Part shown: positions 2,283 to 37,165 of the stretch, one piece after another | Numbering within the stretch: position 1 is the stretch's first letter | Layout: each line of letters opens with the position of its first letter | Source: Mizuhopecten yessoensis | Lineage: Eukaryota | Assembly (NCBI RefSeq): GCF_002113885.1 | Contig: NW_018479948.1 | Coordinates: 1 to 64,000 of the forward strand | DNA length: 64,000 nucleotides | Direction: 5' to 3' | The notes under the pieces: generated by a model | Told to the model about the DNA's origin: nothing | The model's input: the letters and a program-made list of their open reading frames with translations, nothing else | Database searches by the model: none | Made by a program: the position numbers and the translations under genes

Positions 2283-3008
2283 CAAATAAATGTTTTGACA
2301 TCTTCAGATCAAGTTTTATTCGAAAGTGTTGCAATTAAATATAACACGTAAGATTTAAATTTTCATTCGGTTATTAAACAAATGACTGACGTGTTTATGT
2401 GTTTAAATTGAATGATCCTCATCAGTACTGTAGCTGGGGTTCTAACGTCATTGACTTACAGTCTGTACGATTTCAGTAAGTCCCTGCTATAGAACTACGT
2501 TGTCCTCCACAATAACAGCAAATGTCGCCATGATGACCATGACTATGAGTACCTTCATATGTTATTATTTATAAAGGAGTCAACATGAAAAGGTTGCGCA
2601 CAATGTACCAAATGTTAAAGCTATCATGTCAAAGTTTGTGGTGTCTGTAACCGATTAGCGTTCATACCGGCATGAACATCAAAAAATGCCGTTAAATCCT
2701 TGTAATTACATTCTAAACTTTTACTTACTATTGACCTAAATACAGACATTCTCGATATTGATGCGTTTATGTCGTCAGTGCAAACGAGATTCCTGGAGCA
2801 GCCTAACGTCATAAAAGAGGAAGTTGCAGTGGAAATGTAAATATATTTATCGTAAATGACGGCACGTTAGAGTCACTGTACATCTCTGCTAGTTGACGTC
2901 ACATTTGAGTAACCGTATAAATATTACATGATGTCACATTAAATGTCATCTCCAATTTACATGTACAATGAAGACATGTCGATTTGAATTGCCGAAAATC
3001 TTCAACAC

Positions 3009-16000: not shown

Positions 16001-18290
16001 TGATACTATATTAATTCTATTCATGTCATAAAATGGTGTTATTAAGATCATATATATAAATTTAGCAGGAAATATTTAGAAAATTTGAAATTACTTTTCA
16101 AAAATGTTAGTTATTCAATTTTGTTAAACATAACAGTATCAATTATCTATGTAAAAATTAAATAGATTAATAAAAGGAATTACGTCACGCTTCTTATACA
16201 TCAATCCAGAGACGTATATATTACATTACGTAATATATACGTCTTTGATCATCCGAAAGCAAAATACTAAATGACATGAAAACTTGATTCGACTCCCAGA
16301 GATACTGTATCCACATATATTTTATTCAACTCGTTGGCCATCTCAAGTAAATGTGATCTCTATAGGTACATGGTAGATAATAATTTTTTTATGCAATGAA
16401 CGTTATAAACGTATTGACGTACATGAACATTCTACTTTTTTTTTTATTTATAACAACTATCGATATAATATGTATAAATATAGATTTGTTCCAATATATA
16501 CTAAAGATACATGGTCGTGAAAAGTAAATCTACTCATACTAAATACTCGTCGAATTTATTTAATCAAATTTAAGTCTTTAAAAACATCAAGTTAGATGAA
16601 TGCATAACCACAGACTTTATCCAATTCCGTGTACAATATCTAATTTTAAACATAAACTTAGTCCCGTGCAATTGAATAGATTCTTGATATATGAAATCCA
16701 TTTAAAATCAGCGAAATCATTTTTATGTAAATTCAGCATAAGCTTGTATATTATTCTGAATTTGAAAAAAAATGAAACTTAAAGCGTTTCACCGTGTTTC
16801 TTTCTTCTTTGCATATACAATTAATATACAGTATTGTTTTTCTATAACAGATAAGGCCTAACAATCCAACATATGGACTTCAATATTTATTTACGTAAAA
16901 CATGTATTTCAATTAACTTATATTTACATATAGAATAATATTTAATTTTCAGATTGATGTCCCTTTTTTTGAGTTGGAAAATTGCGTATTTTCTTTTTTT
17001 TAAGATCGTAGACGTGATGGGATTGTAATCTACACATTAACACCAATTAATTCACTCAAAATATATTCATGCTATTTATTAAGAGTTGAGTATAAGTTAT
17101 GAAGTTATTAACATTTAGTTATCATAATTTCATTTCCAATGTTTCAGGTGTTATGACATCGCAATAACAATGTCATATATATAAATGAGAAAATAACNNN
17201 NNNNNNNNNNNNNNNNNNNNNNNNNNNNNNNNNNNNNNNNNNNNNNNNNNNNNNNNNNNNNNNNNNNNNNNNNNNNNNNNNNNNNNNNNNNNNNNNNNNN
17301 NNNNNNNNNNNNNNNNNNNNNNNNNNNNNNNNNNNNNNNNNNNNNNNNNNNNNNNNNNNNNNNNNNNNNNNNNNNNNNNNNGGGTAGTATTGGGTCATAG
17401 TCACGGCAATTCGGTGATGTTTTCGGCACCAAATCGCATATTTCCCGATAAAATATGACAGATGGAAGTAAATAACGTCTACAAAGGTGATATTTCACAG
17501 TAATAAAGAAGTATTTGGTTCATAACTGGATCGTATGGGGTAGTATTGGGTAGTATTGGGTGGTATTGGATAGTATTGGGTGGTATTGGGTAATTAGACG
17601 CGCCCCTTTGAACAGTCGATAGCCTTAGCACATTATTTTGGATTTCTTACTTCTTTGTTCCCAAGGTTTCCCCACCAATCTTTAGTTTCAGCTTAATGGC
17701 AGGTTTTGCCAATCCCCCTGGAGCTCCCAGAGCAAAGGGATCAAGGTCATGGTCCCTTCTCTTCTTGTGCTTCTTTTTATGTTTCTTATGTTTCTTGTGG
17801 GAACTGCTAGGGGAGTCCACTATAAACAACAACAAAACATAGAGCATACAGCATGCTCCTGAATGTACATACAACCTATAGCTTTGTGTCTACGCATATA
17901 TGATATATAAAACACAGTCAAAATACAAATACAATCTGGAGAATTGTTGCCATATTGATCTATATATGTAAATATATATACCACCCGTGTACTTATATTA
18001 GTTCACCAAATTACACCCTAATCAGACAGAGCAAGACACGAATATGATACAGTTCTTTTTGATATTAGAAATTTAGGCTAAGCTCATGCCTTACTGTGTC
18101 GTGCTACACGGTGCCCTGTGAAGAAACATTAAAAAACGATTAATTCAACCCCCCCCCCCGCCTAATTTGTAACTGCATGAAACTTCTTTAGCGTACACGT
18201 ATTAGCACAGGTAGTTTTGATACCCGGTTAATGAGTGTAATTACCTGAAAGTAACTCTTCCTCTGTTCCAGAACCTTTACGTTTTCCCAT
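10067..18290 (-). CDS. INO80B: INO80 complex subunit B (PAPA-1 / Ies2 homologue), 9 coding exons, ~330 aa, with a C-terminal HIT-type zinc finger
   Basis: Exons: 18290-18245, 17819-17651, 14786-14704, 14079-13856, 13190-13139, 12203-12103, 11584-11537, 11086-10971, 10220-10067. All are GT-AG with consistent phases; total 993 nt. Diagnostic motifs: HKKHKKHKKKHKK; IKLKLKIGGETLGTK; EEKEWLDALEKGDLDDSG..KDPRLLTARQRAL; LTEEQQLKRVQRAKKRRQQAHEKREKDKKLTLDRLL (PAPA-1); CSISGCKNVKKYACSRTGVPLCSLGCYK (zf-HIT). Confidence 0.95.
10651..10921. repeat. 66-bp tandem repeat (~4 copies) in INO80B intron 8
   Basis: The unit catggtcagttatctccccttgtcagttagacaaattacctcccctgtctgtaggaccttgttaaa repeats and produces the spurious ORF 10653..11000. 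Confidence 0.95.
12335..12980. repeat. Two related minisatellites in INO80B intron 5: ~33 bp at 12335-12473 and ~49 bp at 12590-12980
   Basis: Units gagtaactgttaatatttatgtaaggggatcca and ggtgttgatgtaatactagtgagagatacctcgtaacatgtatttaatgggag. Confidence 0.9.
15471..17605. mobile_element. Apparently non-autonomous DNA transposon with long (>=200 bp) terminal inverted repeats and an 8-bp TSD, in INO80B intron 2
   Basis: The left end cggcgcgtctaattacccaatactacc and right end ggtattgggtaattagacgcgccc are inverted matches extending about 200 bp, up to the N gap. The identical 8-mer ctttgaac flanks both ends (15463-15470 and 17606-17613). The interior is AT-rich with a gap at 17198-17381. Confidence 0.9.
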
Positions 18291-18527
18291 TATGTTAACA
18301 ACAGGAAAAACGTGTCTTCATAAAATGTAAACAATCACATTTTCTATAAAGATCTAATTATGTTACTGTTCTAAAGGTGATCCTCGTGCCTTATCCGAAC
18401 CAATAGCTGTAATAGGGAGTTATTTCCCTTCCTCCAGTGTCTCTGACTACGCTCTTATTATACATACCCAACTCCCCATTACCGGTTCAAATTATCACTG
18501 AGTTACACAAACGGCATTATTGTCGAT

Positions 18528-18660
18528 CAGGGGCGTAGCTAGGCCCATTGATATGTGTAAGAATAGGCGAGGGGTCTGGGGGCCGCCCAGACCCCCAGTG
18601 AGTACAGAACGGTGCTCAGGGGGGCGAAGCCGCCCGACGGAAAATTACTTTTAAGATTTG
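18528..18660 (+). mobile_element. Probable end of a non-autonomous DNA transposon (CAGGGGCGTAGC terminus)
   Basis: caggggcgtagctagg...ggggtctgggggccgccc...cagggggcgaagcc is a pattern typical of hAT-like non-autonomous elements. I could not find the partner end. Confidence 0.45.
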
Positions 18661-18959
18661 ACGAAGCATTCAAATTATTATCCGACACAGTTATTTAAAG
18701 ACATATTTCAGTGTCAAATACGCTGAAATGAAGAACATCACATAACTTATAATAATATCTTTTATTTATCCAGGGATACATATTTAAACATGTCTAATTT
18801 ACAATATGGGCCTGCATCAATATATTTACAGATATCACAGAAAAATACACATACACTACATGAAAGACATTTGCAGATTAAAATACATGTATATTAAACA
18901 CAAATACAATACTTATTTAAAAAGTATATCGTTATATCATAAAGTAAGTACCAAACTAA

Positions 18960-19660
18960 CGTTTTGAGGAGAAATCCTGTGGGTATTTGCGTTTAAAAGC
19001 AGCAACATCACACGCATTTCTAATATTTACATTCAATCCATTCAATAAAACAGAACATGTGTACACAAATGAACGTTTGAAATAATTAGTTCTGGCAGTG
19101 GGAATATAAACTTGTTGGAAACTGATGACCTTGTATTTCTAAAACTGATATCATTGACATAGGTAAACATATTACTTAAAACACTTGGAGTATCCCCATG
19201 TAAAATTTTGTAAGCCAGAACTGCTTTCCTAAAAATAAAATAATCTTCTATTGGCAGCCACTTTAACTGTTTAAAAAGCAAAATAGAAGGGTTAAAAACG
19301 TCTCTTATATTTAACAAAACTCTAGCTGCCCTTTTCTGAAGTTTTGAGATTTTATGAATATATGGTTTGTTACTAGCCTCACACTAGACTACAGAACAAT
19401 AGATAAAATGTAGGAAAACTATACTTTGATAAACTTTACTGAGAACATCATTAGACATGAAAGGTCGTTACCTTTTCAGAACACCAATCTTTTTCGAAAT
19501 TTTCTTTGATATGTAATCAATGTGGTCTTTCCAAGACAGACAACAGTCGACAAAAACACCAAGGAGTTTTGCACAGTGAACAGTTTCAATAATTAAGTTA
19601 TCAATAGTAATGTTCAACTCACGACATTTAGATAACATTTGAGACGATCCCCCCCCCCAA
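18960..19660 (-). mobile_element. Decayed 3' part of a CR1/L2-group LINE (C-terminal end of ORF2 reverse transcriptase)
   Basis: Broken ORFs read KLLGVFVDCCLSWKDHIDYISKKISKKIGVLKR and LFKQLKWLPIEDYFIFRKAVLAYKILHGDTPSVLSNMF, typical post-RT sequence. Confidence 0.85.
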
Positions 19661-20405
19661 TCAACATGCACTGAGTTATGTTCGCTATTATGTTTATTTT
19701 ACACTACACGTTGCCCAGCCACCTTTTAATTTACAGCTAGTAATGTCTAGATAAAAGACACTTTCCTTTTGTGTTATGAAAGTCTGTACTACGTTGTCCG
19801 TATTTATAGAAATTTCCCTGTGGACATGTAGCATTGCTAGCGAGGAAAGACGGTCTTGGTTTGTCTTGGTACTATTCAGTAAAAAATATAAAGTGAAACC
19901 GACCTCTGCTAAACTATATAGTCATATATATAGAATCAATTAATTTTCTAATCATGATATTAGACATTGCTTATCAGATTCCTTTTCAGTACGTTAATAA
20001 AAGCAGCTCAGAAAATCAAATGAATTAGCCCCCCATCCCCCAAAAACAGAAGGAAAAAGTACATAGTGATGGTTGGTTATCATGTTTATCTCATTCGAGT
20101 TAGTTAATTTTCAAATTGTTAAAGACCTCGAACAGTAATGTTGGTTAAAGAATGAAAAATGAGTGTGAAAATTAATATTGTAATTATTCTGTTATGCTGA
20201 AAATGTTTCCCAAAAAAATATATAAAAAAAGTGTCGACAAAGATGTAAATTAGAAATCAGTATGGAAAATTCCAATACTATTTCTAATATTTCAGTAGAG
20301 TGATCTATCAACATTTTGATTCCATCTCCGTCAATCACCCCCCACATTCATATACCACTATAAAAAGGTGCTTCCACATGTTTCTACCCCATTTAGTTCA
20401 TCAAC

Positions 20406-22642
20406 ATGGCAGAGAAATACTTTTTTGGACATGGACTATATGCCCAATTATCATCCTACAAGGACGAGACCTACGTCCACATCGATGGCCGTAATGGACG
20501 GAGCGCGAGTGTGACAGGTGCCGAGTTCCTGAGTGTAATATTAATACTGTAATAATATTATTGTAGGATTGTACTGTAAGATGGATGCAACAGTGCCTGC
20601 TATACCAGTGTGAACGCACGGTATGGGTGAATGTAATGCTATGTAGTATACAATCGTAATAGTATTGTAAAATGAATGTAATAATGTATATCACAGTGTA
20701 TGATGAGTGTCATTGTATGCGCAGTGCGTTATATTGTCTATTATAACAAGGTATGATAGTACGTATGAACAGTGTAATAGTGTGCTTATCATTGTATGAG
20801 AAGTGTAATTGTTTCCACTATATTATTGTACGCTAGCATAGTAAGATGAGTGCTTTACGGTCAACCATATCATTGTTATATTGTACTTTATGATGACCTC
20901 TTCTTGCGCACAACAGTGTGCCTGAGTGATAATACAAATCTCTGAAAATCTCTGAACCTGTCACAAAACTATGACCTCCTCATGGAGGGAATTAACCGGC
21001 TGAGGCGGGTAAGTGTGAAAGTTCTAAACATATTTATATTACAACATGTATCAAACTGGTTATACGAGATGAAAAGCGTTTAACACTTCCAAATCCTGCT
21101 GTTTATACTTTATTGTATAATGATCAGTAAATGTTGATATTATATGTGTTATGTTTTAGGAATCGTGCTCGCCAAAAACACCCACAGCAACACCAGGCCT
21201 ACCTCCGATATCAAAAACCCCCACAGCAACACCAGGCCTACCTCCGATAGCAAAAACACCCACAGCAACACCAGGCCTACCTCCTATATCAAAAACACCC
21301 ACAGCAACACCAGGCCTGCCTCCGATATCAAAAACACCCACAGCAACACCAGGCCTGCCTCCGATATCAAAAACACCCACAGCAACTCCAGGCCTACCTC
21401 CGATATCAAAAACACCCACAGCAAAACCAGGCCTACCTCCAATATCAAAAACACCTACAGCAACACCAGGCCTACCTCCAATATCAAAAACACCTACAGC
21501 AACACCAGGCCTACCTCCAATATCAAAAACACCTACAGCAACACCAGGCCTACCTCCAATATCAAAAACACCCACAGCAAAACCAGGCCTACCTCCAATA
21601 TCAAAAACACCCACAGCAACCCCAGGCCTACCTCCCATATCAAAAACACCCACAGCAACACCAGGCCTCCCTCCAATATCAAAAACACCCACACCAACAC
21701 CAGGCCTACCTCCGATATCAAAAACACCCACAGCAAAACCAGGCCTACCTCCAATATCAAAAACACCCACAGCAAAACCAGGCCTACCTCCAATATCAAA
21801 AACACCTACAGCAACACCAGGCCTACCTCCAATATCAAAAACACCCACAGCAACACCAGGCCTACCTCCAATATAAAAAATTATGAGTAATGCTTTGTGT
21901 TGCTTTTCTACTGCAGATACTCTTCATTTCTAACAATTGATATTCAAATGAAAAATGAAAATTATGCTTATTTGACTTTAATACTCTTCATAGACTCCAG
22001 ACATGGTATTACCACCAGTTCCAGTACGTCAAATTCTGGCACCAGCACCGGCTAACGTGGCGAGTACATGCTATTTTCACTGTTTGATTATATAATAGTT
22101 AGCTACAGGTTAAGTACTAAATATCAGATTCCTATACTCCAATGTTCACGTGAGCGTCAAACACTTTTACTAACACATTGTATGGCCGCGCAATCCTATA
22201 AACAAATATTGTTTCACTGTCCTCTGTAAGTATTATTCATATTGACCATATTTCGATTTTATATGTATACACCAAACATGATTGAGAAAATACTAATCAA
22301 GCGCTTAATCATTTCCAGTCTGACGAGCCACAAATGAAAACAGAGGTGACTTCCCCTCAAAATCAAGCAGCTTGGTAAGTTTCAATACACCATGAATACG
22401 TTTTACCTACTATTTCTATAGATTTCGAGGTCTCCAGAAGGTGAGTGTAGTATTTAAGTTCAGCTGTACTCTAATCGTTTTCCCGCACATATTTTAACAA
22501 AATATCAAAAAGCGTTTCATCCGTTACTGAATAATTTTCTCACGAAGAATATTCATTTTTATTTCAGCTGACCGTCGACTTTCAGGATATTGAAGTCAAT
22601 GAGGACGTCATGAAGGTCCTCCTCGCCTCTATTGACTTGTAG
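20406..22642 (+). pseudogene. Disrupted intron-containing gene: PC4-like N-terminal domain, then a Pro/Thr-rich 14-aa repeat, then short downstream exon-like blocks
   Basis: 20406-20531 reads MAEKYFFGHGLYAQLSSYKDETYVHIDGRNGRSASVTGAEFL. After a ~420-bp insertion, 20955-21008 reads NLSQNYDLLMEGINRLRR|GTAAGT. The phase-0 acceptor ttttag|21160 opens ESCSP(KTPTATPGLPPIS)n up to a TAA at 21874. Further AG/GT-bounded blocks lie at ~21993-22109, 22319-22374, 22422-22440 and 22568-22642; their frames are unresolved. Confidence 0.55.
21170..21880 (+). repeat. 42-bp minisatellite, ~17 copies, probably coding
   Basis: Unit aaaacacccacagcaacaccaggcctacctccaatatca. Variation is mostly at third positions of the KTPTATPGLPPIS frame. 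Confidence 0.95.
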
Positions 22643-22699
22643 GTTATAATTATTTGATTTCTTAATTTGAGTTTTATTGGGGAAAAAATAGATGAAAAA

Positions 22700-23450
22700 T
22701 CAATATGTAGTAGTAATATATCCCAGGGTTTTAACATCACACAACTGCCATACTCTTTGTGCATGGCCACAATCCTCTTGTGAAATGTCTTCTTTGGATA
22801 AATCACCATAGAAAGATGATTTTGGGGATAACCGAACGTCAGAAAACTTGGAGTCGTCCGTCAAGTACTGGTAATGATAAATCTCCTTCCTGAGCAAGAT
22901 TTCCCTGTGTTCCGGTCGAGTAAACCCTTCCTAAAATATTTGAAATTGTCGTGTCCTTTTTCTTAGAGATTGGTCACCAATGTATCCAGTGAACTGGGCA
23001 TAAAACGGCACGAGTCCAAAAAGCGTAAATTCCCGAGTGAAAAGGAGATGTAGTTTTTCATGTTTTGTGCTATGCATGTGATATTTTGCTCTTTGTATTT
23101 TCTTATTGCATCCCAGAGTATGTGTCCATCGAACCGCGACATGTTGTGATAAAACACTGGAATGTGTTTTGGGTGTTTAACATTCAAATTACATTTGTTG
23201 CAGGCAGCTCCCCGGAACACCCCCCCCCCCCCCCCCCCCCCCCGTCACGTGGTAATGGTCCTTTAGCTTGTCTTTGTTGTTTTTAAAGTACTTGTTGCAT
23301 AGATAACATTTGTTCGTATTGTCAAAAGTCTCCTGATCTTCTTGGGTCATGGCCATGGGTTCCATGTCACTCAAAGTTTGCTGGATTTCTCTTTCTTCTT
23401 CAATGAGATAATTAATAAACGTTTCTACCACGTTAGGTCCACGTTGACTC
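22700..23450 (-). pseudogene. Polinton/Maverick protein-primed family B DNA polymerase fragment (endonuclease VII-like Zn-binding segment plus exonuclease region), frameshifted
   Basis: Reads CYLCNKYF..KLKDHYHVTG / FRGAACNKCNL..IPVFYHNMSRFDGHIL..YISFSLGNLRFLDSCRFMPSSLDTLVTNL / LRKEIYHYQYLTDDSKFSDVRLSPKSSFYGDLSKEDISQEDCGHAQRVW. These match canonical Polinton PolB motifs. A poly-C run at about 23220-23243 breaks the frame. Confidence 0.9.
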
Positions 23451-23489
23451 ATAGTGGTAGATACATGTGTACGTCTTCACCCTTGAGGA

Positions 23490-23910
23490 TATGACTGGTA
23501 CTTTTTATCTGTGTGTGGACTTTAATCTATCAAGAGATATCCGTATTTTGCTGCAGTGGCCGTTTCGTAAGCTTTTGTGAAATATTGAGCTTTGGTAGGA
23601 AATATCTGTCTCCCTAAGATATAGACTTGCTGCTTATCTCTCTTGATTTTGAAAAAAACCGATATAATGACTATTCAGAGAAATCGTACGCATGCACTTG
23701 CCTTTAGAAAATGCATTTTGTGTCAAAAAGATGACGGTGGTATTGTGATGATGACAGCCGACCGTAAATAAATGTTGTACGTCGACACTATTGCACACCG
23801 TTTCCATCAAATCATCTAAAATTAGTAACAATGGTAACCCGTCCCACCACCATTCTTCTAAATTTTCTTTTGTAGTTATCCCTTCGTGAAAGGTTAAGTT
23901 TTTATGATCC
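23490..23910 (-). pseudogene. Polinton A32/FtsK-like DNA packaging ATPase, C-terminal half
   Basis: Reads LTFHEGITTKENLEEW..LLLILDDLM (Walker B)..LFTVGCHHHNTTVIFLTQNAFSKGKCMRTISLNSHYIGFF. After a frameshift it continues RDKQQVYILGRQIFPTKAQYFTKAYETATAAKYGYLLID*SPHT. Walker A is missing. Confidence 0.9.
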
Positions 23911-23999
23911 GTGTGGTAAAGGATATTGTATTAAATAGGTACAGAGTGTCGAATTAAACTGTATGGGTGGTGATGTTTCGATCTTTACACAGTCTGATG

Positions 24000-24506
24000 T
24001 CACGTAATGATGTTTACTCGTAGATATATACATAGGCTGGTAACGGTGATAGATAGCAACACAATAACTCCTGTTAGCTTTAGTATCGTAAAATGGATCT
24101 TGTATTTGTCAGATATACTGTCGTAACTGCTGGATAAACATGTAGTGAGCATGATGCTTTCTGTTTCACAATCCTTCTGATCCATGTTTTCGGTAACAGT
24201 GACATTCGAAGACTGAATCAGTTACTAGTATTCATCGCCATATGAAGCCGACAGTATAACGACCTGTTCCAATAGTACTAATCTGTTACAAAATTATTTA
24301 AATGCTTTTGGCCCCCTACGCGGTAAAATGTCTAATAATTTTCTTGCTCTGTCGAATCGGTTGTTTTCTACGATGATACCTTACACCATGTACTTGGGTA
24401 GAATATTGGATTTGAATAAATGATCTGTAACATATAATGTCGGTAGACGTTCTACGAGCAACACTCGGTTCTTTCTTAAAACGGATTTGTGCACACTGTC
24501 CATCAT
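24000..24506 (-). pseudogene. CARD-domain gene (RAIDD/caspase-2-like CARD) with an in-frame C-terminal hydrophobic segment and four in-frame stops
   Basis: From the ATG at 24506: MMDSVHKSVLRKNRVLLVERLPTLYVTDHLFKSNILPKYMV*GIIVENNRFDRARKLLDILPRRGPKAFK*FCNRLVLLEQ. The same frame continues after TAG TAA (24227-24222) into ORF 24000..24185, which ends ILKLTGVIVLLSITVTSLCIYLRVNIIT. Confidence 0.75.
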
Positions 24507-24870
24507 AAATCGATGTTCTCCTGTCTGTAATTTTCAAACTAACCCATGTGTCGATATGAACAAAAAGTTCTAACAGTTTTGATTTAAGACGGGTGAATTC
24601 AAACGTTGGAAATAAACTGGACATTTAATAATTCTCTTATCTCTGACAAGGGTCTTCAAATAGTTCGGGAAATGTTTAGCACGCTTTTTTTTTGCCAGGG
24701 AGAGCACCCGGTGACCTCACGGGTTTCAGAGAAATAAACCGGGCATTTAATAATCCTCTTACCCACACATTTAAATCGACACCTGAAACGTTGTCATACG
24801 TTTTGGGTTTTGATCTAATGGTACGGTAATTTGATAATTTTTATTGTATTTGATGGTCAGTGTGTTTGTG

Positions 24871-25700
24871 ATTCAGATCCGGTACATATTTGTTGTGTAG
24901 TTTTCGACATCATAATACGAGCCAGGGAAAATATTCTACAAAAGTTTATATATATACCTTTTCCATATTAACACAGAAATATTAGCCATTGTTTTTTCTT
25001 ATAACTTTTTTCATATTTGGTTTATTTTCACAAACATTAACGACACAATACCAGCACAAACACACACGTACCTACATACAAATGTACCTACCTGTGCATC
25101 TAATAAAGGGATGTATACCACGATACTTTTGATAACATTTACTAAGAAATGTTTTTAGACACTTATTCATCTCATTTATTTTCACAGACACAAACATAGA
25201 AACATAAAAACATATGAATGCATACATCTATTAAAGTGATATATAGAAGAATACTTTTACAGCATTTAAATAAGTTTCGAACATTTTATGTATATACCAG
25301 TTTCATATTTACTAATTTTTTCTTCTTCATTTTCATAGACATACACAGCACAATGCTAACATACCGACCCATTAAACATAGTTAAACTACCACACACGTA
25401 CCTATAACATACGTCTAATAAAGTGAGGTATACCACAATACTTTGATAACATTGAAATTAGTTTTGTCATTTCTAACAGAGATAAAATATTCTACAACAG
25501 TTTTTATATGTACCTGTTCAATCTTTACAAAGAAATTTTAGACATCGATATACAAACACACACGTACCTACATACAAATGTACATACATGTTAATTTTAG
25601 AAAGTGATAAAAAGGACAATATGTTAATAGCATTGAAATAAGTTTTATCATTTTTAACAGAGATGAAAATATTCTACAACAGTTTATATATATACCTGTT
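24871..25700. repeat. Left arm of a long inverted repeat, internally made of degenerate tandem units; partner at 28761-29216
   Basis: attcagatccggt..ttgttgtgtagttttcgacatcataata..cacaaacacacacgtacctacatacaaatgtac is the reverse complement of sequence in 28920-29216. Confidence 0.85.
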
Positions 25701-25809
25701 CATTATCTACTATTGGTGGAGGACACAAGGAGGCGGAAAATCCGCCGGGATTGTCGAACGGTGTTTATGAAGCGAATACCGTTGAAGTAGATATTCTAGA
25801 GCTCGGTTC

Positions 25810-26290
25810 ACACACGTGATAGACGTTAACTTTTGATCGTGAAGCGTGTGATGAACGTCGACATTTTTTCACTGGATGCACGTGATTGACGTCAAGGTTT
25901 TTTACTCGATGCACGTCACTGACCTTATTTTTTTCTCGATGCACTTGACTGACAATTATCTTTTTACTCGATGCACGTGGTGGACGTTGATTATTTTACT
26001 CGATGCACGTGACTGACGTAAACTATTTTTACTCGATGCACGTGGTTGACGTTAATTCTTTTTCTAGATGCACGGGGTTGACGTAAAAATTTTGACTGAA
26101 TTCACGTTATTGACGTTAAATTTTAAGTTGTAAGTGCGATCTCTCCGTACATAGAAAAAAAGTATTGGAATCTATGTAAAGGTCTGAGATCTGAAGTCAA
26201 CGTAGTTGCATGACGTTAAATATTTTGAATTGATTCACTTGATTGACGCCAAGTTTTTGATTCGATGCACTTGATTGGCGTTTAATTTTC
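25810..26290. repeat. Degenerate ~33-bp tandem array rich in CACGTG and TGACGT motifs
   Basis: Recurring unit tttttactcgatgcacgtgactgacgt, about 12 copies. Confidence 0.8.
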
Positions 26291-28440
26291 ATCATTACAT
26301 GTATGTGGTACCGTTCGTGATGCCAGGTTTTCGGTCAGATGTTAAACGCTGGGTGTAGTTATTTTGTATTAGATGTACGAAAACGATGTCAAATTTGATC
26401 TCGTTGAACGTGTTTGATGTATCGCCGGTGTAAATAAAACCAAAATGAATCGCAACTCCTCTCGTCTCTTTCAATCAATCAGACCTCGCTTCTTAACCGA
26501 GCGTATGATTTATAGCACTACTTGGCAAACTAACTAATGTTGTATAAACGAAAACTGGTGCCCACCCATCCCCTGCACGTGGTCCTAACATGGGAACGCT
26601 TCAGACTTCCACTCCATAACCATGTATGCAATTGGTGAGTATGAAGAGATGAATATACAAAGCTAGCAGGATTTGCCCTAAGGGCCTGACACATTCTTGA
26701 TAACTTTATCCCTCGGTCGTCACATTGAAACTGTCGAAATCGACACCCTTTAACCATATACACATTTAAAGATTTGGAACCGAGGATCGTCCCGATTTCA
26801 GATGACTAAATGCCACGATCATAACTATAACAAGGTCGAGATCCCTACCCGAAAACGATATAAACAATTGTTGAATGTTGTACGCTAGACACGAAGAGTT
26901 GAACACAATGATATCACAAAGGAATGAAGTACAGGGGTCCGGTTTAGTTTAAATCAATTTTATTGCAACAAAAGACAAATGTATTGGACAAAAGTTATTG
27001 CAACTTACTTACGTCCTTTCCGTAACAGAAAATATATATACAAAATTAATGTGTCACGCAATAATCTAATACAGATTTATATATGTATATATATATAAGA
27101 TGTTAAAGATGGGTTACAACAAAAGAGGTAATGATAGGATTAGGGACACCAACGTATAGTGTTTAAATATGTATTCGGAGAGTTTACTTGAGATCGCGTA
27201 TGTGATTTTCCCAATCGAGTCGGCGTAAGTAGTATAACTAATCTATACACACATATCCTTCTGCTTTTCTAAAGTTCAATCACATTCCGTGCCGCATTTG
27301 CTTTTCTCCTGTGTCACTCCAAGTCTTTCTGTTAATTCTTGTCTTACATACTTAGCCGACTAGATTAGGAAAACCGGACACGCACTCTTTGTCATATGGA
27401 AACGGTTATGATATTGATGGACGCTAAGATTAAAGTTAGTACACAGAGATCGTTGGTGTTGGAAAAAGGGAGAGGGGCTGGAATGAGAGAGGAGGGGGAG
27501 GGGAGAGACAGATGGGAATAGTCGAAGTAGGTATCCTGGTTATTCAATAAGACTGTTGGTTATTACATGTTAAACCGTTTGGAGCTAAAAATGAACAGTT
27601 GTACAGACCTACAAATTTGAACGTTTAGATTGTAGTCAAGGTTTGCATCTCCGAAGAGAAGGTGGTCCTATCCTTGGGAACGGATCCGCAGCGTCATAAC
27701 ATGGAGGTGATTGAGATCCCAAACATATCACATGGATATACATATATGTATACGATTCTCTATCGAATTCGATATGATGCCTTCATTAGAAATGGGATTA
27801 TATTGCAGTACAAAGGAAGAGTAAAAACTCCCCTGGTACATTGTAGCCAACGTTCAAGAGAGTAGTGCAGTTCATACACTCTCCTGATCGTAAAATAAAT
27901 CCAAGTCCGTTTACGTTATTACGGGATTTTTCGCGTTATTACGACTTTTATTTTCGCGTTATTACGTATTCACTTCACGTTATTACGTGATTTTATTTCA
28001 AAGTCTAGACATTGTTTTTCACAAAACAGTCATTATTTTCCTAGCGTTGATCAATTTGTAGTGAGAATGAACCAATTCACGTAATTCACGCTCATTGCAT
28101 AACAACGAAATGGCACGACAAACATTTAACGTCGATCTTACACACCGAACCAAATATTTACACTTAAAACGCGACATCGATAGGAAATTTTCACAAGACC
28201 GACAATTTGGCGTCGCGCAGTCGCATCGACCTCGAAATTTACAGTTCACCTCGTAATTTACATACGACATAAAGGCATAAAAGGTCTTCTGATAGGAACG
28301 AAAATTACTTGTCGCTCACACACATCCGGTCGAAAACTCACACTTCATAAGCGACTTCGAAAGAAAACCTCTACTCGTAACACATCGACACGACCGAAAA
28401 GTTGACGTCGTGCAGTCGCATCGACCTCGGAATTTACACC

Positions 28441-28761
28441 TCGGACAAGTTATACAGAGCGTGCTTAAGGAAGGAAAATATGTGCTGGGGAAGGCAAAGA
28501 TTAGAAAATGGTTGGAGAAGCAAGAGGACCACGGGGTGCACGCTAAAGTGACCAGGTAGTTTCGGAGGAGAAAAAGTCATCTCTCCTTTCATAGACTATC
28601 AGTGGGACGCCGACACGGCCGTCTTGGCGTCTCGCGCAACGGAGAACGACGGGTACGGTTACTTTCTGCTGGCGATCGACGTGTTTTCTCGCTACGTGTG
28701 GACGGTTACACTGCGCATGCTGCGGGGATCGGAGATGGTAAAGGCTTTGCGCTCGATGTTA
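28441..28761 (+). pseudogene. Polinton retroviral-like (rve) integrase, N-terminal/core fragment
   Basis: With frameshifts it reads DKLYR/VLKEGKYVLGKAKIRKWLEKQEDHGVHAKVTR*FRRRK/VISPFIDYQWDADTAVLASRATENDGYGYFLLAIDVFSRYVWTVTLRMLRGSEMVKALRSML, a typical Polinton integrase motif set. The ORF track does not show this frame. Confidence 0.85.
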
Positions 28762-29216
28762 CACATGTATATGTAGGTACGTGTGTGTTTGTGCTCATAT
28801 TGTGTCGTTATTGTTTGTGTAAATCAAAACATGAAAAAGCAATTAGAAAAAATAAACCTATGGCTAACATTTCTTTGTAAATATGGAACAGGTACATATA
28901 AAAACTATTGTAGAATATTTTATCTCTGTTAGAAATGATAAAACTAATTTCAATGTTATCAAAGTATTGTGGTATATATCAATTTATTAGATGTACAGGT
29001 ATGTACATTTGTATGTAGGTACGTGTGTGTTTGTGCTGATAATGTGTCGTTAATGTTTGTGAAAATATGAAAACAGTGATAAGAAAAAACAAACAAATGG
29101 CTAATACTTCTGTGTTAATATATATGGAACAGGTATATATATAAACTGTTGTAGAATATTTTCCCCTCATATTATGATGTCGAAAACTACACAACAAATG
29201 TTAACCGGATCTGAAT
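28761..29216. repeat. Right arm of the long inverted repeat (partner 24871-25700)
   Basis: Reverse-complement match described for the left arm. Confidence 0.85.
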
Positions 29217-29799
29217 GTGTCACTATTATGTTAGCTGAACCTTTTCATTCGTAAAATATGGATCGATATTTACTTGAAAGTACACTTTAAAAAAAACATT
29301 TGTAAAACACTTTCGAGAGAAACATGGTTAATGGTACATTTGTATGATCAAATATGTTAATCGTTAAGTAAAGATCTTTATAAGTATCTATATGAACGTA
29401 TAAATATGTTATAAACAGAGCTCTTCTATCTGAACCGATTTTGGAAGTTTGATTGCGTTCGTGTTTTTTCCTGCCCTGTAAATGTGTATATGGTTAAAGG
29501 AGGGGGATCTCAACCGGTATAAAGTTATGACCAAGAAACTAAATCTCTCAAGAACGAAGCCATACCCTGTGGTCAACCCTGCTAGGTTTTTTTTAATATT
29601 AATCCCATCCTAATTCGCAATTTCATATATGGTTATAGAAAAAAACAACCATAGCAAAGAGTCAACTAAAGCTTAAAATCGATAAAACTAGAGCCAAAGA
29701 GGATTAAACGCAGGGCGTTAATTAACGCAGAATTAGCGGTTAACGAATCGTTAAATTTAACGACATCACCGGGCCCTGGTGTTATTATTTCTGTAATTG

Positions 29800-30100
29800 T
29801 AATGTGAAGGTTATATATGGTGAAGTGGTCATACTTAGCGATGCGATGGTTATATTTGGTGTAATGGTCACACCTTACATTATGTGGTAGTTTTATTTGA
29901 TGTAATGGTCAAACTTTCCATTTTGATAGTTATATTTGGTGTAGTGGGCAAACTTTCCAATTTGACTTTTATATTTGATGTAGTGGTCAAACTTTCCAAT
30001 GTGATGGTTAAATGTTGGTGTAGTGGTCACACGTTTTAATTTGATGGTTTCGTTTGGTCAAATGTTGACGCTTTCCAACATGAGTGTTTCATTTGGTGAT
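29800..30100. repeat. Degenerate ~39-40 bp tandem repeat (gatggttatatttggtgtagtggtcaaactttccaat)
   Basis: About 7 diverged copies are visible. Confidence 0.7.
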
Positions 30101-33100
30101 GTGTTAGCCCAGAATAATAGAGTTGTATGTACTTTTACATATAATTATATTCATCAATTCGCGATTTGTACTGTTCTGAAGACGATACCATGTTATTGAA
30201 TGTTACGAATTGTAAAACTTACTAGGAGGTTGAAATGGTCGGAAGGTAATGGTTTGGTGCCGCAGATGGTCATTTTGAGACCTGGACATTATCTTCATTC
30301 AAAATTTGTATTTCTATCTTACGTATGTAAATGAGCATTTCTGTTATATTATTTAAGGGTGCCTATTTTCAAATCCAAACTCGTGCATATTTGTTTAAAT
30401 GAAAATGTATTGATTTCAATCAATGCCTCTAATGAATGTGTCATTGAATTGAGTAGACTTGTTCCACATGATTACCCTTGATTGACATGACAAACGAAAG
30501 CAATAAAATTGGCATAGAATTGTTCTAGATTTCGCCGTCATATCCTGTGGTATTATTACGCTGAAATATATTATTTATATAAATCTGGTGGTTACACAAT
30601 CATACGTGATGTTGAAATGCAATATCGTTAATTGAGTAACCATGAAATGCTTAATTATATTTCAATAATACATTTGGATACACGATAACTTGTGTATATT
30701 ACAGGTATGTTGATCGAGTTGTCATAGCAATATCACTCTTTTCATCAATTTCTAAAATAAAATCTGCAGTCGAATGGAATTATGTATTACACTTTGTATG
30801 GGTGTGATACAATCATATGTGAATAAAGACACCTTCAATTCAATGACTGGTATTTTTATATTCCTCGGTATAAACATACCAGGCTCTTCTGAAAATGGTT
30901 TTCATATGTTAGAGTTGTCCTAACCCCAGAACCTGTTCTAGGAATTTCTCGATAGCAACTGCAAAGCTTTTTATCTGAGAGGGTTCAGCTTAAATAATGT
31001 AACGGATGTCCTGATGACTTTCTTGTTTGATATTTTTACTATCTTTTCTGATTGAAGCATTTTCACTTTGCTTGACATCGTTACTGCCTACCCACATGAC
31101 AGGATTAACCGAGGTACACTGGTTTTGTTTAGGTTCACAAGAAAATATCATTTCTCTGGATGTCACTATAGTTCATGTTGCAGTCTGTTAGTATTGGCTT
31201 CGAGTTTATATTTTGTCATAGAAGAACGGCGTTTCGGATGGTTTTCGAAGACCAAATTGACATACCATCCTGTCTTTGTCCATCGATAAACCAATGACGT
31301 AACAATCAATTTATCCTCTCAAGAGAAGATAACTCTGCAATATGCAAAGACGGAATACTACTATTGTCTGATGTTTTTCATCCGGGGTGTTTGATCTTTT
31401 CGAATAAATTTTATTTTACAACAATAACAAAACTGTTTCTTTACATTTTAAAATCATCTTTTCTCTGTTAAGAAACTGCAATCCATACATCAGTTAATCT
31501 GTAAAAAATGTTTGCTATAGGAATTACAATAGCATCAATAGTGAAGCGATAACTCCTTACTGATTACACACGCATTCAGTGAGGAACAAAAAAGCGCGAT
31601 GAATTTTCACTTTGCCTCGGATAAACAACGGATAAACGCTTAGTTCTGGTACATATGTATTATGTATATTACTACGAATCCGAAATAAGCCTTGAACATT
31701 TTCTTATCAAAGTGGAATGAGGAATATTAGCTAATGTTTAGATGGAAATACCGAATTGATAACAACACGAAGTCAATTTTATCTAAAGTGTTTTGTAAAT
31801 AAAGGTACCGTTAGATATAAAACGTATCCCCAAAATAAAGACTTTCTTCCTTTCATTCGACAGCTTAGATATGTTGCTTATTTCAATCCCTTGTTTTTCT
31901 GACGTCATCTCTCATTTTTGGAATAGAGCGAGCTTCTTTAAACTTGTCTAAGTGTACATGTAATAGATTAGCTTACATGATATCAAATGAAGAGATGTTC
32001 GAAGTACAGCATAACTTATATTGATTGATTGATTGATTGATTCACTTTTGAAATATGCATCAGAAGTTTACAAATATCTTCACATATTCAATTAGACTAT
32101 GAAATAAATATTGTTGCTGGATTACGTGGTATGTAAGAATTAATAATACGTCTGTCCAACTTGTTCATACACACCTGGAACGCATACGCGTGCAGCATAC
32201 AGGCACAAACTCACGCGCGCAAATACAATGCACGTGTGCGCGTCTTCTTAAACACATTAAAACGCAATATAATTTACCTAAATTGTGAGAGAATTAACAC
32301 TTCTTAAATAACAATACCTGTTATTTATTTATTATTTATTTATTTTCGAATCAGAAGAACTGATTTTGTTTGAATTCTACTGGAGATATTCGAAACATAG
32401 AAAAAAACAATTTACGCGCGATAAAACGTATATATATATATATACAATGTAAGTCATAGTGAACAATAATGGCAAGATTCCAATGACAAATGTAACAAAG
32501 AACACGAGCTTTTTACACAACATGTGCTTACAAAAGCAAAAGTGAAATAAGTTGCTCTGGAAGGGTACATACATTTTTTTTTATCTTAAATTATACCAAT
32601 ATCTAGTTGTAACAGGGACCGTTACTTAAGGCGTCCATACTAACACTGTAGTCACAAATGATGCTTCATAAATTATCACAATGCCATAACACATCTGCAT
32701 ACAGAATCTGAACAAAATCGGTCAATATCTAATTGTCAATCAATCAGGACCCGACCTAACAAGGACATATTATGAAAAGAAAAGAAAAAATCAACGAAAG
32801 CCACTGAAGTTTTTTCAAGTGTCATTGCTGATTTTAATACAACATTTAAGGGATATAGGACACTGCATAATTGAGACTTTTCCAAAGCTAGGCTGCAACA
32901 GCTATTTTGCGGTAGATGTTGACTTTGTGTTTCCCATCTTCAAGAACACCATCAAAATATTAATTTTACCAACCTATATTACAGTTCATAAAACAGAACA
33001 GATTTCAATTTTCTTTTGATGAGATGTAGACCTAAACCTTATCACAACAAAAACACCCATTAAAATTCGAATGAGCATTTTGTTCGTTTTTCGTAGGAGC

Positions 33101-33707
33101 ATAAAACTGAAATTCTTAAAAAGTCAGATTTTTCCTAAAAGAATGTTGTCTAACTAATAACACATTGAAGGATCATTTTTGATTTAACCAAAACTAAGGA
33201 TCATATACTACAGTATACATGTAAAAATATCTTGCTATGGTCAGTTATCAGATATTAACAGACAAATCAACAGACGGAAGCCATCTCAAGTAATGATATT
33301 TTCTAGACAAATATGTGTTCATCTTAGAATAAAAGTATCTTATAACTTTTGAATACAATATCTTTTCAAGATGGCCCCCAAAATATTCATTCTACTGCTT
33401 AATCAGTTGTCAGATTCCCAGACAATTTTCTTGCAATATAAATGGAATTCAGAGATGTTGTGTTTGTTTGATACTTTGTTTTCATATATTTATTAAAGTT
33501 TTATGCCGTATTAACGGCTGATGACATTTACAGATAATGTTTTGCAAGACGCAAGAGTATGATATGTGTTCGATGGCAGAAGGAAGGAAGAAAAACAAAG
33601 ATGCTTTTGAGTTTGTATTCAAACTAGTGATTCTAGATTCACAAGAAAACAACTTATTTCAAGATTTGTCGGAACATCTTAGCCCTTTGGTGCAACTGTT
33701 TTGGATT

Positions 33708-33965
33708 TTAAATAATTCTAAAATGGCCAAGATAATAATGTATAGTTGATGTATGAGCACACATTCCCATAGTTCTTTGACCAACTGGGCATTGGCAGTA
33801 GTAATCTATTACTGGATTATTATCATTTGGTGTCGTGCTGTGCTGAATCCAGACATTATATTGAGTCTGGCTTTTGTGTCTGGAACAAATCTGGCAACAG
33901 ATGAGGTCGTGATAGTGCTGATTCACCCATATTACATAATCTTTACGAATTCTGACTCTGCTCAT
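33708..33965 (-). mobile_element. SWIM-type zinc-finger fragment resembling the C-terminus of DDE transposases
   Basis: ICSRHKSQTQYNVWIQ...IDYYCQCPVGQRTMGMCAHTSTIHYYLG has the CxCx(n)CxH pattern. No intact DDE core is visible. Confidence 0.55.
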
Positions 33966-35469
33966 TTGGAGAGATTTGGCTGTTTACCCTCTGAGCAAAA
34001 CAGTTTGTTTCTGTGAGATGAATCTTCAGTTAATGTGCCTGTTCTCTGTCTTTTCTGTCAGTGTCCGGTGATCTTTGATAAATTGGTCCCCGTATCCAAT
34101 TGAGACATGCAGTCACAATCTTTAGCACTCCCATAAGTATATCAATAGTTCTCTACTCAAATGGTCAGGACGAAGGAACACTGGAACACTGGAACTATAG
34201 ATTTAGTCAATGCTTGTACTATAGACTGAAAGGTTTTTGGAATACTAGGCAGAGAAATGCCAAGAGCGAAAAACTTAATTACAGAGATATCAGTTTTTAT
34301 CTTAACCCAAAACAGTTAAAGAGCATTTTGTGCAGTTTTGTTATATACTGAAGAAGAAAGAAATGTGAACAGGATCCGTAAAACAGGTCCTTGATTGTTA
34401 AGAAAACAAAACCACGAGTGGTTTCATCTTCAAAACTTTCTGTTTCAATTTCTCTTTAGTCTCTTTAAGTCAGTTTATCCAAGTCATTATATTTTTTTCT
34501 TTTTTTTACATTTCATGTACCTTTACATTTATGAGATTTCGCGAAGATAGGATGGCGACCTTCACCAATACATTTACTCTTCATTTTGAGATGAATATCA
34601 ACAACTGAGTATGAAATATCCCCTAAAAGCAATGTAAAAACGAAAGTCTGATGTTAAAATGTATAAAAAATTATAAATGTGTAAGAACAAATTCTAAAAA
34701 GTGACAAGAAAATTACATTTGATCTCGAAATTGATTGTTAATAAAATATTTATCAATCACGCCAAGTGATGAAATAAATTGGAATTTGAAATTGTTTGTG
34801 ACTTAACATGCACTGAAAGATTTATTGTAGGCTTGCAACGAATTCGTAACCAATGACCTGTAATCAGGTGCATTGCTTTTAAGTGGACGCCAGGAAGATG
34901 TCTTAGGCCCTCACCTTATTGGGCACACTGGATACTTTGTTGTGCGAAATGAATACTTTCCACCACATTTTTGTTATGAATTTGTGCAAACATATTTGAA
35001 GTAACACCACTTCTTCATACTATGATAATTTTTGGTATAAAAAAATAATAAGAATGAAAAATCCTATATTTTACATTAAAATTTTCACAAAATGTTCAAT
35101 TTAACTCATATTCTGGATGATAAATATATTATTACAGCACTACAAGAGAGTAAACGTCCTTTCCCAAGTAATACGATGCAAAAAATACGATTATTTTTCA
35201 GAAAAATACTTTCAGAATGATATAGCATTATTCGTTCCCCATGCTGTAGTAAGGTTAATTAATCATCTAAATATTTAGAAGAGTGATTCAAAGTAATAAC
35301 ATCGGATGTATAAGGGATTGAAAAAAGTTAAAACAACAGCATAAATCTCGTAGCACTTCTGAAACAAAATTTATGAAGGGGCAGGCTCCTATGTAATTCA
35401 ACATAGCTGGAAATAGTCCCTTTATAAAAAAGCCTAAATATACCACAATCGCCAAATAGCATGATCCCC

Positions 35470-36894: not shown

Positions 36895-37165
36895 TTTTAA
36901 TTCTTTTAGTATTTTGCCGTAGATCTGATTAGGTCCTATTGCTTAATGATGGTTAATGTTATGTAATAACTTTCCTATACCATTGTTGGTGATGTGTATT
37001 TCAGGCATGATTGGGTGTGATGATGGTCCTTTGTCAGGCATATCATGGTTCTTTTCTGTTGTGAAGGCACCTTGAAATGGTTGGTTTAGGATATTTGCTT
37101 TTGTTGTTGTGTCTGTTGTGAGTTGTCCATCTTTGCGGAGTGCAGGAATGTCAGTGATTTCATTT
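36895..37165 (-). mobile_element. CR1-type LINE ORF2 fragment (linker just before the RT domain)
   Basis: The minus strand reads IPALRKDGQLTTDTTTKANILNQPFQGAFTTE..MPEIHITNNGIGKLLHNINHH*AIGPNQIYGKILKELK. Confidence 0.8.

Follow-up and report, generated by a model that had tools for sequence, protein, structure and literature searches.

Polintons replicate by means of a protein-primed DNA polymerase B (pPolB), insert through an integrase and are packaged by an ATPase, and their ends follow an AG...CT rule, with terminal inverted repeats (TIRs) of 100-1500 bp and a 5-8 bp duplication of the target site. Degraded adintoviruses are frequent in animal germlines. Accessory genes of adintoviruses have been labelled MOSUB, SSDBP, IAP (on the Mytilus and Pinctada maps) and Bcl2, as given in the main text and the part of the supplement considered here (Starrett et al. 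2021, PMC8502044); MOSUB is, going by PDB titles, the name of a fungal PC4/Sub1 homologue. In the part of supplementary file 2 of Buck et al. 2024 (PMC11071296) covered here, the packaging NTPase directly adjoins 10 of the 15 PC4 records examined (of at least 35), adjacency being taken from list order, and 8 of these 10, judged by eye, open with a hydrophobic stretch; the PC4 records amount to about five distinct sequence types. Among the records listed, three contigs hold two PC4 genes each and two, uAdinto10048 and uAdinto10088, show the row Bcl-2, PC4, NTPase. The same portion holds a death-domain gene in uAdinto21178 and a 'Card' gene in the Tegillarca clam adomavirus 5526, a virus with virion genes of adintovirus-like kind, and none of the 13 'card' places listed is a CARD-only gene in an adintovirus proper. 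Nematode Mavericks are likewise Polintons with non-core genes, and horizontal transfer of cargo has been shown there, according to the part of that study used (Widen et al., 10.1101/2022.07.12.499685). Outside this family, the ranavirus vCARD of grouper iridovirus (GIV-CARD) inhibits apoptosis and lowers caspase-8 and -9 activity, as stated in the sections of PMC4457926 drawn upon.

The locus described here lies in Mizuhopecten yessoensis, within a window of 64 kb (the whole stretch of DNA analysed; features in Table 1). As far as the consulted parts of PMC8502044 go, it has in common with adintoviruses a pPolB, which may be of the pfam03175 type, an rve integrase and an FtsK/A32 ATPase; unlike them, it is without capsid, protease and ITR and has a CARD-only gene. 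The region is probably a dead, internally deleted remnant of a Polinton or adintovirus, with the CARD gene, two PC4-type genes and the repeat arrays likely being its own and not unrelated insertions.

Table 1. Features of the region, with window positions, strand and basis or remarks
Feature	Position	Strand	Basis or remarks
Putative multi-exon gene, broken: predicted PC4-fold N-terminal domain, Pro/Thr repeat exon, short 3' exons	20406..22642	+	
385-bp insertion breaking the PC4-fold domain	20536..20920		8-bp direct repeat on either side (20528, 20921)
39-bp tandem array, 18.2 copies, 95% match	21173..21880	+	13-residue Pro/Thr repeat
Protein-primed PolB fragment	22703..23445	-	His-Me/EndoVII-like finger and exonuclease part; Pfam and L021 comparison
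A32-like packaging ATPase, C-terminal 60%, two frameshifts	23449..23900	-	Match to L003 frame
Hydrophobic-segment and PC4 gene	23905..24221	-	Between CARD gene and ATPase; match to P0002
CARD-only ORF, 93 codons, two internal stops	24225..24506	-	Pfam CARD
Two copies of 122-bp-spaced repeat upstream of CARD	24609..24761		Repeat search and contigs
Left inverted arm, AT-rich 170-240 bp subrepeats	24871..25712		Internal
32-33 bp tandem array, 11 copies, E-box and CRE half-site motifs	25832..26292		Repeat search
723-bp nested high-copy insertion	26940..27662		Joint 26939 to 27663 in 3 of 4 runs
CpG-rich stretch, short repeats, 51-bp direct repeat pair (source of Cys-rich frame)	27925..28440		Repeat search
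rve integrase fragment, N-terminal piece	28441..28762	+	Pfam and L006 match; cut at right arm
Right inverted arm	28763..29216		Match to left arm
Second inverted match to 26613-26771, 70% over 165 nt	29476..29639		Repeat comparison

The PolB piece scores in Pfam as DNA_pol_B_2 (E 0.006) and Endonuclease_7 (E 0.022), both under the cut-off, and matches the Polinton PolB on locus L021 at 27-33% identity (E 1e-7) and, more weakly and over the exonuclease part, that of locus L006 (E 2e-5), these two loci being presumably of the Alpha/Beta adintovirus classes. It consists of the exonuclease and His-Me-finger part, without the N-terminus and the polymerase domain, and is broken at three points: by two frameshifts, one of them within a run of 23 C, and by an in-frame stop. 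The ATPase piece corresponds to residues 102-253 of the frame on locus L003 (metagenome contig SPKZ01017263.1). The match is spread over three reading frames, with identities of 69, 71 and 60% (E 1e-50; 72% DNA identity over 460 nt), and the piece is without Walker A. A homologue search returned 99 candidates, 53 of them homologous, and in the phylogeny the piece is sister to P0007, the ATPase encoded on L003 (support 99/92). The integrase has a Pfam rve score of E 0.017, shares 33% of its residues with the L006 integrase, which has a chromodomain (E 6e-9), is frameshifted near 28560-28575 and ends soon past what we take to be the region of the first catalytic Asp. All three core fragments claimed by the earlier note are real and all are broken, leaving no intact core protein in the window copy; the reading as a decayed Polinton is supported. 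The stretches that would hold the OTU-like domain at the N-terminus of adintovirus PolB and the chromodomain at the integrase C-terminus are deleted here. Viral-contig scans with PolB, P0002, the integrase, the ATPase and the family of the gene at 20406 returned no related locus, only two spurious phage loci.

L003 offers the closest comparison for gene order. On a single strand it carries the ATPase, ORFs of capsid type (449 aa) and of protease type, one that is PW-like, and the PolB N-terminus, the capsid and PW labels being our assumption from motifs. In both L003 and the window the stop of the ATPase gene and the start of the following one overlap in identical fashion, with PolB downstream on the same strand; in the window the sequence then jumps into PolB. 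Unlike the window, L003 has intact ORFs, a protease rather than PC4 precedes its ATPase, and there is no CARD in its 5.6 kb. As in the earlier note, no capsid or protease was recognised: 230 ORFs of 24 related loci, capsid-type and protease ORFs included, found no match in the 64-kb window at E<=0.01; this loss is read as a deletion, which makes the region a remnant and not a complete element.

CARD, PC4 gene, ATPase and PolB lie head-to-tail on the same strand. The PC4 gene in this row, a second one absent from the earlier note, matches P0002 in two stretches, one of 65 aa at 74% and one of 54 aa at 59%; P0002 in turn matches Pfam PC4 (E 2e-5, 24.5 bits against a cut-off of 25) and has a best 19-residue hydropathy of 2.0. 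The gene is frameshifted past its hydrophobic segment, and the window copy stops where the PC4 domain starts; it belongs very probably to the element. The adintovirus contigs of PMC11071296, in the portion covered, resemble the window in that a hydrophobic-segment and PC4 gene adjoins the packaging NTPase and that PC4 genes come in pairs on some contigs, the window's gene having the longer linker. Since this arrangement has already been deposited, PC4 cargo is ordinary, and with IAP and Bcl-2 genes also in print, most of the cargo described as unusual is not. Among the 24 ATPase-bearing metagenome loci, a Pfam PC4 gene occurs in one, L017 (E 1e-13). In L010 and L013-L015, the small ORFs lying upstream of the ATPase were not accepted as PC4 (E 0.5-3.7, hhalign probability 4%).

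The CARD gene was confirmed (Pfam CARD, PF00619; 53.1 bits against a gathering score of 23.9, E 3e-14, internal stops read as X). Its ORF ends in a double stop, 3 bp from the PC4 gene; a read-through frame uniting CARD and membrane anchor in one MAVS-like protein was rejected, the hydrophobic part being the start of the separate PC4 gene. The gene occupies the position held by Bcl-2 in other adintoviruses, adjoining the PC4 gene as does the anti-apoptotic Bcl-2 gene of uAdinto10048 and uAdinto10088 (PMC11071296, in the part covered). In size the predicted product of 93 codons (the gene being broken) resembles the CARD-only GIV-CARD of about 91 residues, whose source is, in the sections of PMC4457926 used, a large non-integrating iridovirus of a different virus family. 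The earlier note had seen in the PC4 and CARD genes modulators of host transcription and innate immunity. PC4-fold proteins of DNA viruses would more simply be single-stranded-DNA binders, and 'cell-death blocker' fits the CARD better, because it is of the apoptotic RAIDD/cIAP/caspase-9 class.

That the CARD is a piece of a host death-fold gene or a pseudogene, captured or inserted at this site alone, is rather unlikely. CARD families are large in many invertebrates, the nearest solved relatives of this one are cellular (RAIDD, 2e-5; cIAP1; caspase-9), its ATG is closely preceded by a splice-acceptor-like site, and none of the 24 ATPase-bearing loci, most of them short, has a CARD. Against a host origin, the gene is a stand-alone ORF whose double stop immediately precedes a gene typical of adintoviruses, it is covered by 5-7 divergent contigs, of which one continues into the PC4 gene, and the death-domain and 'Card' genes of PMC11071296 show that such genes have been deposited for an adintovirus and a clam adomavirus. 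No CARD gene of Polintons was found in the literature searched, supplements being covered in part: relevant matches numbered zero in the main text and searched part of the supplement of PMC8502044, and neither PC4 nor CARD is named in the part of PMC11131425, on a coral polintovirus, that was covered. The CARD probably belongs to the element and is likely a small gene carried on it as a predicted cell-death blocker, its sole and modest novelty.

The gene at 20406 stands tail-to-tail with the PolB piece, 60 bp apart. Two unnamed proteins resemble it, at 61% (E 2e-8) and 52% (E 1e-6) identity; it has no Pfam, PDB-sequence or Atlas match, and a word-index search with its exon found none of six candidates. 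Exon borders were delimited by sequence, and splicing is suggested by four GTRAGT donors on the plus strand and none on the minus strand in 2.3 kb, about 0.7 being expected per strand; run X16 (guessed to be RNA) had no intron-skipping joint among the 15 joints listed and is uninformative on expression. Read in the frame fixed by the preceding exon, the 39-bp array gives the Pro/Thr repeat. The PC4-like character claimed for this gene has weak backing from modelling and fold search, and family matching gave nothing: a model of residues 1-64 of its nearest relative, P0003 (pLDDT 74), has four strands and a kinked helix, and 12 of its top 13 VIA rows are PC4/Sub1/Pur-alpha, with Z of 4.2-4.9 only (human PC4: Z 4.9, rmsd 2.6, 48 aligned; Foldseek E 0.44, prob 0.94), while the untrimmed model had no PC4 row in the top 50 of a wide fold search. 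The 8-bp repeat around the 385-bp insertion is likely the target-site duplication of a nested element. No spliced PC4-fold gene with Pro/Thr repeats was seen in the searched part of PMC11071296, and membership of this gene in the element is slightly favoured.

Long inverted repeats are present, as had been claimed, matching at 86% over 278 nt and 93% over 136 nt, but they are internal, flanking only 25.7-28.8 kb, and do not form the element's ends; lying inside the region, they were rejected as the Polinton's TIRs. The array with E-box and CRE motifs is likewise real, with five CACGTG in 530 bp against nine in the rest of the window, an excess due to tandem amplification. Arms and array are somewhat more probably part of the element than foreign to it. 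The 122-bp-spaced repeat forms longer arrays elsewhere (back-joint 24645 to 24609; 10-18 contigs at 24633). The arms might instead be terminal inverted repeats of a mobile, non-autonomous derivative of 4.35 kb (24871-29216) carrying the array and an integrase scrap, since they face each other with matching ends and the right arm cuts the integrase exactly. This too is unlikely: the ends are not AG...CT and share a 3-base flank only, not one of 5-8; the right arm runs on to 29402 at a joint found in 3 of 4 runs, so that 29216 is no end there; and the inverted match of 26613-26771 to 29476-29639 does not keep the order of TIRs, as would fit an inverted duplication within the region. The Cys-rich frame that had been counted among the cargo is improbable as a gene. 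It has no family match and no usable Atlas match, SAND alone appearing at E 0.019; it holds a stop, its first third is antisense to the integrase, and the 51-bp repeat supplies part of the Cys. Shuffles gave a stop-free frame of at least 98 codons in 181 of 1000 cases, and at least nine Cys in such a frame in five of 1000, which favours the earlier reading.

Reads and contigs were compared over 21900-32400 in three DNA-type runs and X16. The region is present in all four runs, from four studies, one with a 2-3% divergent version, and since contigs bridge the gene junctions in all three DNA-type runs, these are not assembly artefacts. Other copies link neighbouring parts: X6 record 26 joins the hydrophobic-PC4 gene to CARD (25 substitutions and 35 gaps over 24028-24397), X1 records 6 and 7 join the CpG-rich stretch to the integrase with 9-11% substitutions, and a joint at 25150 to 26219 in 3 of 4 runs connects the left arm to the array end; such links in divergent contigs may stem from different copies, with gaps. 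The claim that all cargo forms one element is partly supported by these links; among the 32 matches listed (13,784 more exist) no contig outside the window locus connects either CARD or a PC4 gene with any of the core genes (PolB, ATPase, integrase). Depth in the three DNA-type runs, which is not a true copy number, was 6-17 for PolB-ATPase, like the locus's own contigs, 34-76 for the spliced gene, 77-137 for CARD and 57-124 for the integrase; other copies within 18% divergence thus seem to be without the PolB-ATPase piece. The 723-bp insertion reached 1000-3900 and is missing from other copies of the surrounding sequence.

This contrast in depth (6-17 against 34-137) fits a pile-up at one site of a unique PolB-ATPase-PC4 scrap of one Polinton family, a multi-copy CARD/arm/array/integrase unit of another family and a third unit with the spliced gene. 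The site attracts inserts, as is seen from its two proven nested insertions, and no TIR or target-site duplication bounding the whole region was found: checks proposed by the earlier note gave no inverted match above 12 nt between 18301-20450 and 28701-33700, and only 39 chance AG..CT pairs with a 6-bp repeat, the best 8/15 complementary. Against the pile-up, CARD, PC4, ATPase and PolB sit close together in one orientation, their order matching deposited adintoviruses, a divergent contig covers both PC4 gene and CARD, and arm-level and contig-level divergence are alike at 7-14%; we regard it as quite unlikely.

The region lies upstream of INO80B, which is on the opposite strand, its exon at 13694-14080 matching human INO80B (E 1e-9). 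From frame and splice donor, the likely start codon is at 18290, 2.1 kb from 20406, in agreement with the location of about 2 kb given earlier. A crowd of other repeats surrounds the region. Co-option by the host, for instance of the E-box/CRE array as an INO80B enhancer or of the spliced gene as a host gene, might be read from the presence of the region in all runs, one 2-3% divergent, and from splice donors that appear intact; it is very improbable, as all ORFs are broken, the spliced gene included (insertion and stops), and the array is 7.5 kb from the INO80B start.

Under the preferred reading of a Polinton remnant, an element with a putative Alpha-type PolB would have integrated upstream of INO80B and then lost its capsid/protease module and most of PolB. 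Two clean joints would record this, one at about 23900, where the start of PC4 meets the middle of the ATPase, and one at about 23445, where the end of the ATPase runs into the middle of PolB. Two or more smaller insertions would later have entered the remnant. In the parent, judging by fold and position, PC4-fold proteins, one membrane-tethered, may have bound single-stranded DNA in replication or packaging. The 93-residue CARD-only protein would be a putative decoy in the Bcl-2 slot, its size, class and position suggesting that it blocked caspase-2/9-type activation.

Because Polinton remnants are abundant in invertebrate genomes, according to the part of 10.1101/2025.04.19.649669 considered, a single decayed copy matters little. 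The membrane-anchored PC4 gene beside the ATPase has been deposited and goes unmentioned in the main texts searched, and may have a role in packaging. Should the CARD turn out to be a regular component of the family, these elements would have a third type of anti-apoptotic gene besides IAP and Bcl-2, one that parallels ranavirus vCARD, and the view of Polintons as true viruses under host cell-death pressure would gain support. The chances are evenly balanced that this genome harbours a Polinton family with a CARD-only decoy in the Bcl-2 slot, in the order CARD, membrane-anchored PC4, packaging ATPase, and with a second PC4-fold gene that contains introns and a long Pro/Thr repeat, the family persisting mainly as core-deleted derivatives in which the accessory genes are retained; were this true, caspase-recruitment decoys would join the Polinton toolkit, which would argue for a lytic stage that suppresses apoptosis.

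The region at 20406..29630 is a decayed Polinton remnant. Six-frame translation and Pfam searches recovered pieces of PolB, ATPase and integrase where the earlier note had placed them, each match being weak alone, and their identity was settled via related loci. Of 99 candidates from a search for relatives of the ATPase piece, 53 proved to be homologues, the best (P0007) being 69% identical, and a metagenome scan returned 24 related loci, including L003 (SPKZ01017263.1), which encodes this best homologue and carries intact Polinton-type ORFs on one strand: capsid-type, protease-type, ATPase, PW-like and the PolB N-terminus. The 449-aa ORF of L003 shares 33% identity with a capsid-type ORF of the metagenome locus L006, and its protease-type ORF 29% with an L006 ORF matching Peptidase_C5; the capsid and PW labels are presumed. 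The window ATPase piece covers residues 102-253, spread over three frames, and is sister to P0007 with support of 99/92 in a 54-row tree in which it fills 39% of the columns. The PolB piece matches the PolB of L021 (E 1e-7) and the integrase piece that of L006 (E 6e-9). With 230 ORFs of the 24 loci as queries, no capsid, protease or other core gene was matched in the 64-kb window, and the absence of the first two is as previously reported. INO80B, also recognised earlier as a neighbour, lies upstream of the remnant on the opposite strand.

Both joints flanking the ATPase are internal deletions. At 23900 the ATPase starts in the middle of its gene, right next to a truncated gene whose end is at 23905; at its other end, the window shares with L003 a stop/start overlap into the next gene, and a few bases further on is already in the middle of PolB. 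Contigs identical to the window or 2-3% divergent from it bridge both deletion joints, and likewise the joint between PolB and the spliced gene at 20406, in three DNA-type sequencing runs from three studies (X1, X6, X13), one of which may be the source of the window; these joints are therefore real. As for outer limits, comparing 18301-20450 with 28701-33700 gave neither an inverted match longer than 12 nt nor a convincing AG..CT/target-duplication pair, the sizes of terminal inverted repeats and target duplications being taken from Jeong et al. (10.1101/2023.08.22.554363).

Upstream of the ATPase, a frame scores 53 bits against Pfam CARD (with X placed at stops), its best solved relatives being RAIDD, cIAP1 and caspase-9; the ORF has 93 codons, two internal stops and a double stop at its end. 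Over 65 residues, the frame after it shares 74% identity with the beginning of P0002, a protein in which a linker connects a hydrophobic segment to a PC4 domain, and the next frame is 59% identical over 54 residues to the middle of P0002. Judged from these matches, the CARD gene is followed by a predicted hydrophobic-PC4 gene missed in the earlier note, which gives the order CARD, hydrophobic-PC4, ATPase, PolB on one strand.

This order resembles that of some deposited adintoviruses, in which PC4 stands beside the packaging NTPase, in a few with Bcl-2 on its other side. In Starrett et al. 2021 (PMC8502044), Bcl-2 and IAP homologues are reported from adintoviruses, and MOSUB and SSDBP genes are labelled on their maps. 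The searched part of the protein file of Buck et al. 2024 (PMC11071296) holds at least 35 PC4 and at least 12 MOSUB labels; among the matches listed, the NTPase is the neighbouring entry in 10 of 15 PC4 places, which represent about five distinct types, and eight of these ten PC4 proteins start hydrophobic. The order Bcl-2, PC4, NTPase occurs there on at least two contigs, and two PC4 genes on at least three. The file also includes an adintovirus that has a death-domain gene, and a clam adomavirus, its virion genes resembling those of adintoviruses, that has a gene labelled 'Card'; none of the 13 'card' places listed is a CARD-only adintovirus gene. Outside this group, grouper iridovirus has a CARD-only protein of 91 residues that is described as inhibiting apoptosis (PMC4457926). 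The cargo is less unusual than first thought; the CARD in the anti-apoptotic slot alone is without record in the portions of the literature and adintovirus protein set searched. Among the 24 loci, one independent contig (L017) carries both PC4 and an ATPase whose frame continues, as a fusion, into additional sequence that contains a C2H2 finger. Small ORFs also lie just upstream of other Polinton ATPases (Table); four faintly match the PC4 profile (E 0.5-3.7 for three) and may be remote PC4-fold genes.

Coordinates of features in the window and on related metagenome loci
Sequence	Position (strand)	Feature
Window	1-2281	Degenerate 25/26-bp satellite, about 2.3 kb, strong C skew
Window	3012-5415 (-)	Acidic low-complexity ORFs, 442 aa and 132 aa; Pfam matches compositional only
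Window	15484-17572	Pair of 191-nt inverted arms with 97% complementarity, separated by 1.7 kb, in INO80B intron beside run of N; likely young non-autonomous DNA transposon
Window	19045-19383, 36946-37299, 33711-33983 (-)	Two presumed LINE-like fragments and a presumed SWIM-finger transposase-like fragment; no Pfam match
Window	20406..22642 (+)	Predicted spliced gene, last exon-like piece to 22642
Window	23905-24221 (-)	Predicted hydrophobic-PC4 gene
Window	from 24506	CARD frame
Window	24871-25712 / 28763-29216	Inverted arms of 170-240 bp subrepeats
Window	26613-26771 / 29476-29639	Further inverted match, 70%
Window	30100-31800	Few contigs, depth about 100-350; suggests young, near-identical multi-copy element just right of remnant
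Window	31288-31357	70-bp very high-copy repeat, summed depth 64,000-90,000 in three DNA-type runs
Window	47526-47715	Same 70-bp piece as palindrome
Window	41056-41967 (-)	Kv channel pore exon
Window	42686-46648	88-bp tandem array between the two Kv exons, 45 copies, 99% match
Window	48671-49324 (-)	Kv channel T1/BTB exon
L006	10283-10783	HARP-domain gene (Pfam E 3e-12) adjoining PolB, nearly complete Polinton contig
L017	3595-4113	Tandem two-domain PC4 gene, 4.5-kb contig
L010; L013; L014	35-328; 551-856; 385-660	Small ORFs just upstream of ATPase
L015; L009; L016	583-864; 2-361; 100-651	Small ORFs just upstream of ATPase

The long inverted repeats seen earlier are present, but they bracket just the array, a CpG-rich stretch and the integrase instead of bounding the whole element. 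The E-box/CRE array is likewise real, with 11 copies of a 32-33 bp unit, its motifs being mere repetition of that unit; that the array acts as an enhancer is no more than speculation. The Cys-rich frame is probably not a gene: it contains an internal stop, its first third is antisense to the integrase, it matches no family, and its length is ordinary (reached in 181 of 1000 shuffles), although its Cys count is unusual (5 of 1000).

For the first 44 residues of the gene at 20406, a search of 1.84 billion representatives gave four matches at E<=0.001, of which two are true relatives and two are repeat-protein artefacts. The model of the closer relative comprises four strands and a kinked helix, and PC4/Sub1/Pur-alpha fill 12 of the 13 top rows of its VIA fold search, but with Z<=4.9 and Foldseek E of 0.2-1; a wide fold search with the untrimmed model listed none of these folds among its matches. 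The proposed PC4-like character is, from this modelling, plausible and not proven. A 385-bp insert, flanked by a repeat of 8 bp, splits the predicted domain, and further exon-like pieces with canonical donors follow. The window copy is likely dead, since its frame has stops.

Whether the parts travel together was judged from one alignment of run contigs to 21900-32400. A divergent contig (X6 record 26) covers the PC4 gene and CARD, and two others (X1 records 6 and 7) the CpG stretch and integrase; in three of four runs, joints link the left arm to the array, skip a 723-bp nested insert and extend the right arm onward. The claim that the cargo belongs to one element is partly supported, by these links between neighbouring parts; among the 32 contig rows listed, no other copy shows CARD or PC4 connected with a core gene. 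PolB-ATPase is found at single-locus depth (6-17) versus 34-137 for the spliced gene, CARD and integrase, depth not being copy number, which counts towards a mosaic of parts; the linked neighbours speak against this. A family of core-deleted derivatives is the simplest reading, a mosaic being less likely.

The roles of pPolB, integrase and ATPase in Polintons are established. The PC4-fold proteins would bind single-stranded DNA for replication or packaging; the fold-search matches include a phage T5 PC4 homologue whose title names a role in recombination-dependent replication. The spliced gene and arrays would be members of the element, and CARD could act as a caspase decoy. On balance, CARD is somewhat more likely than not a standing gene of this Polinton family.
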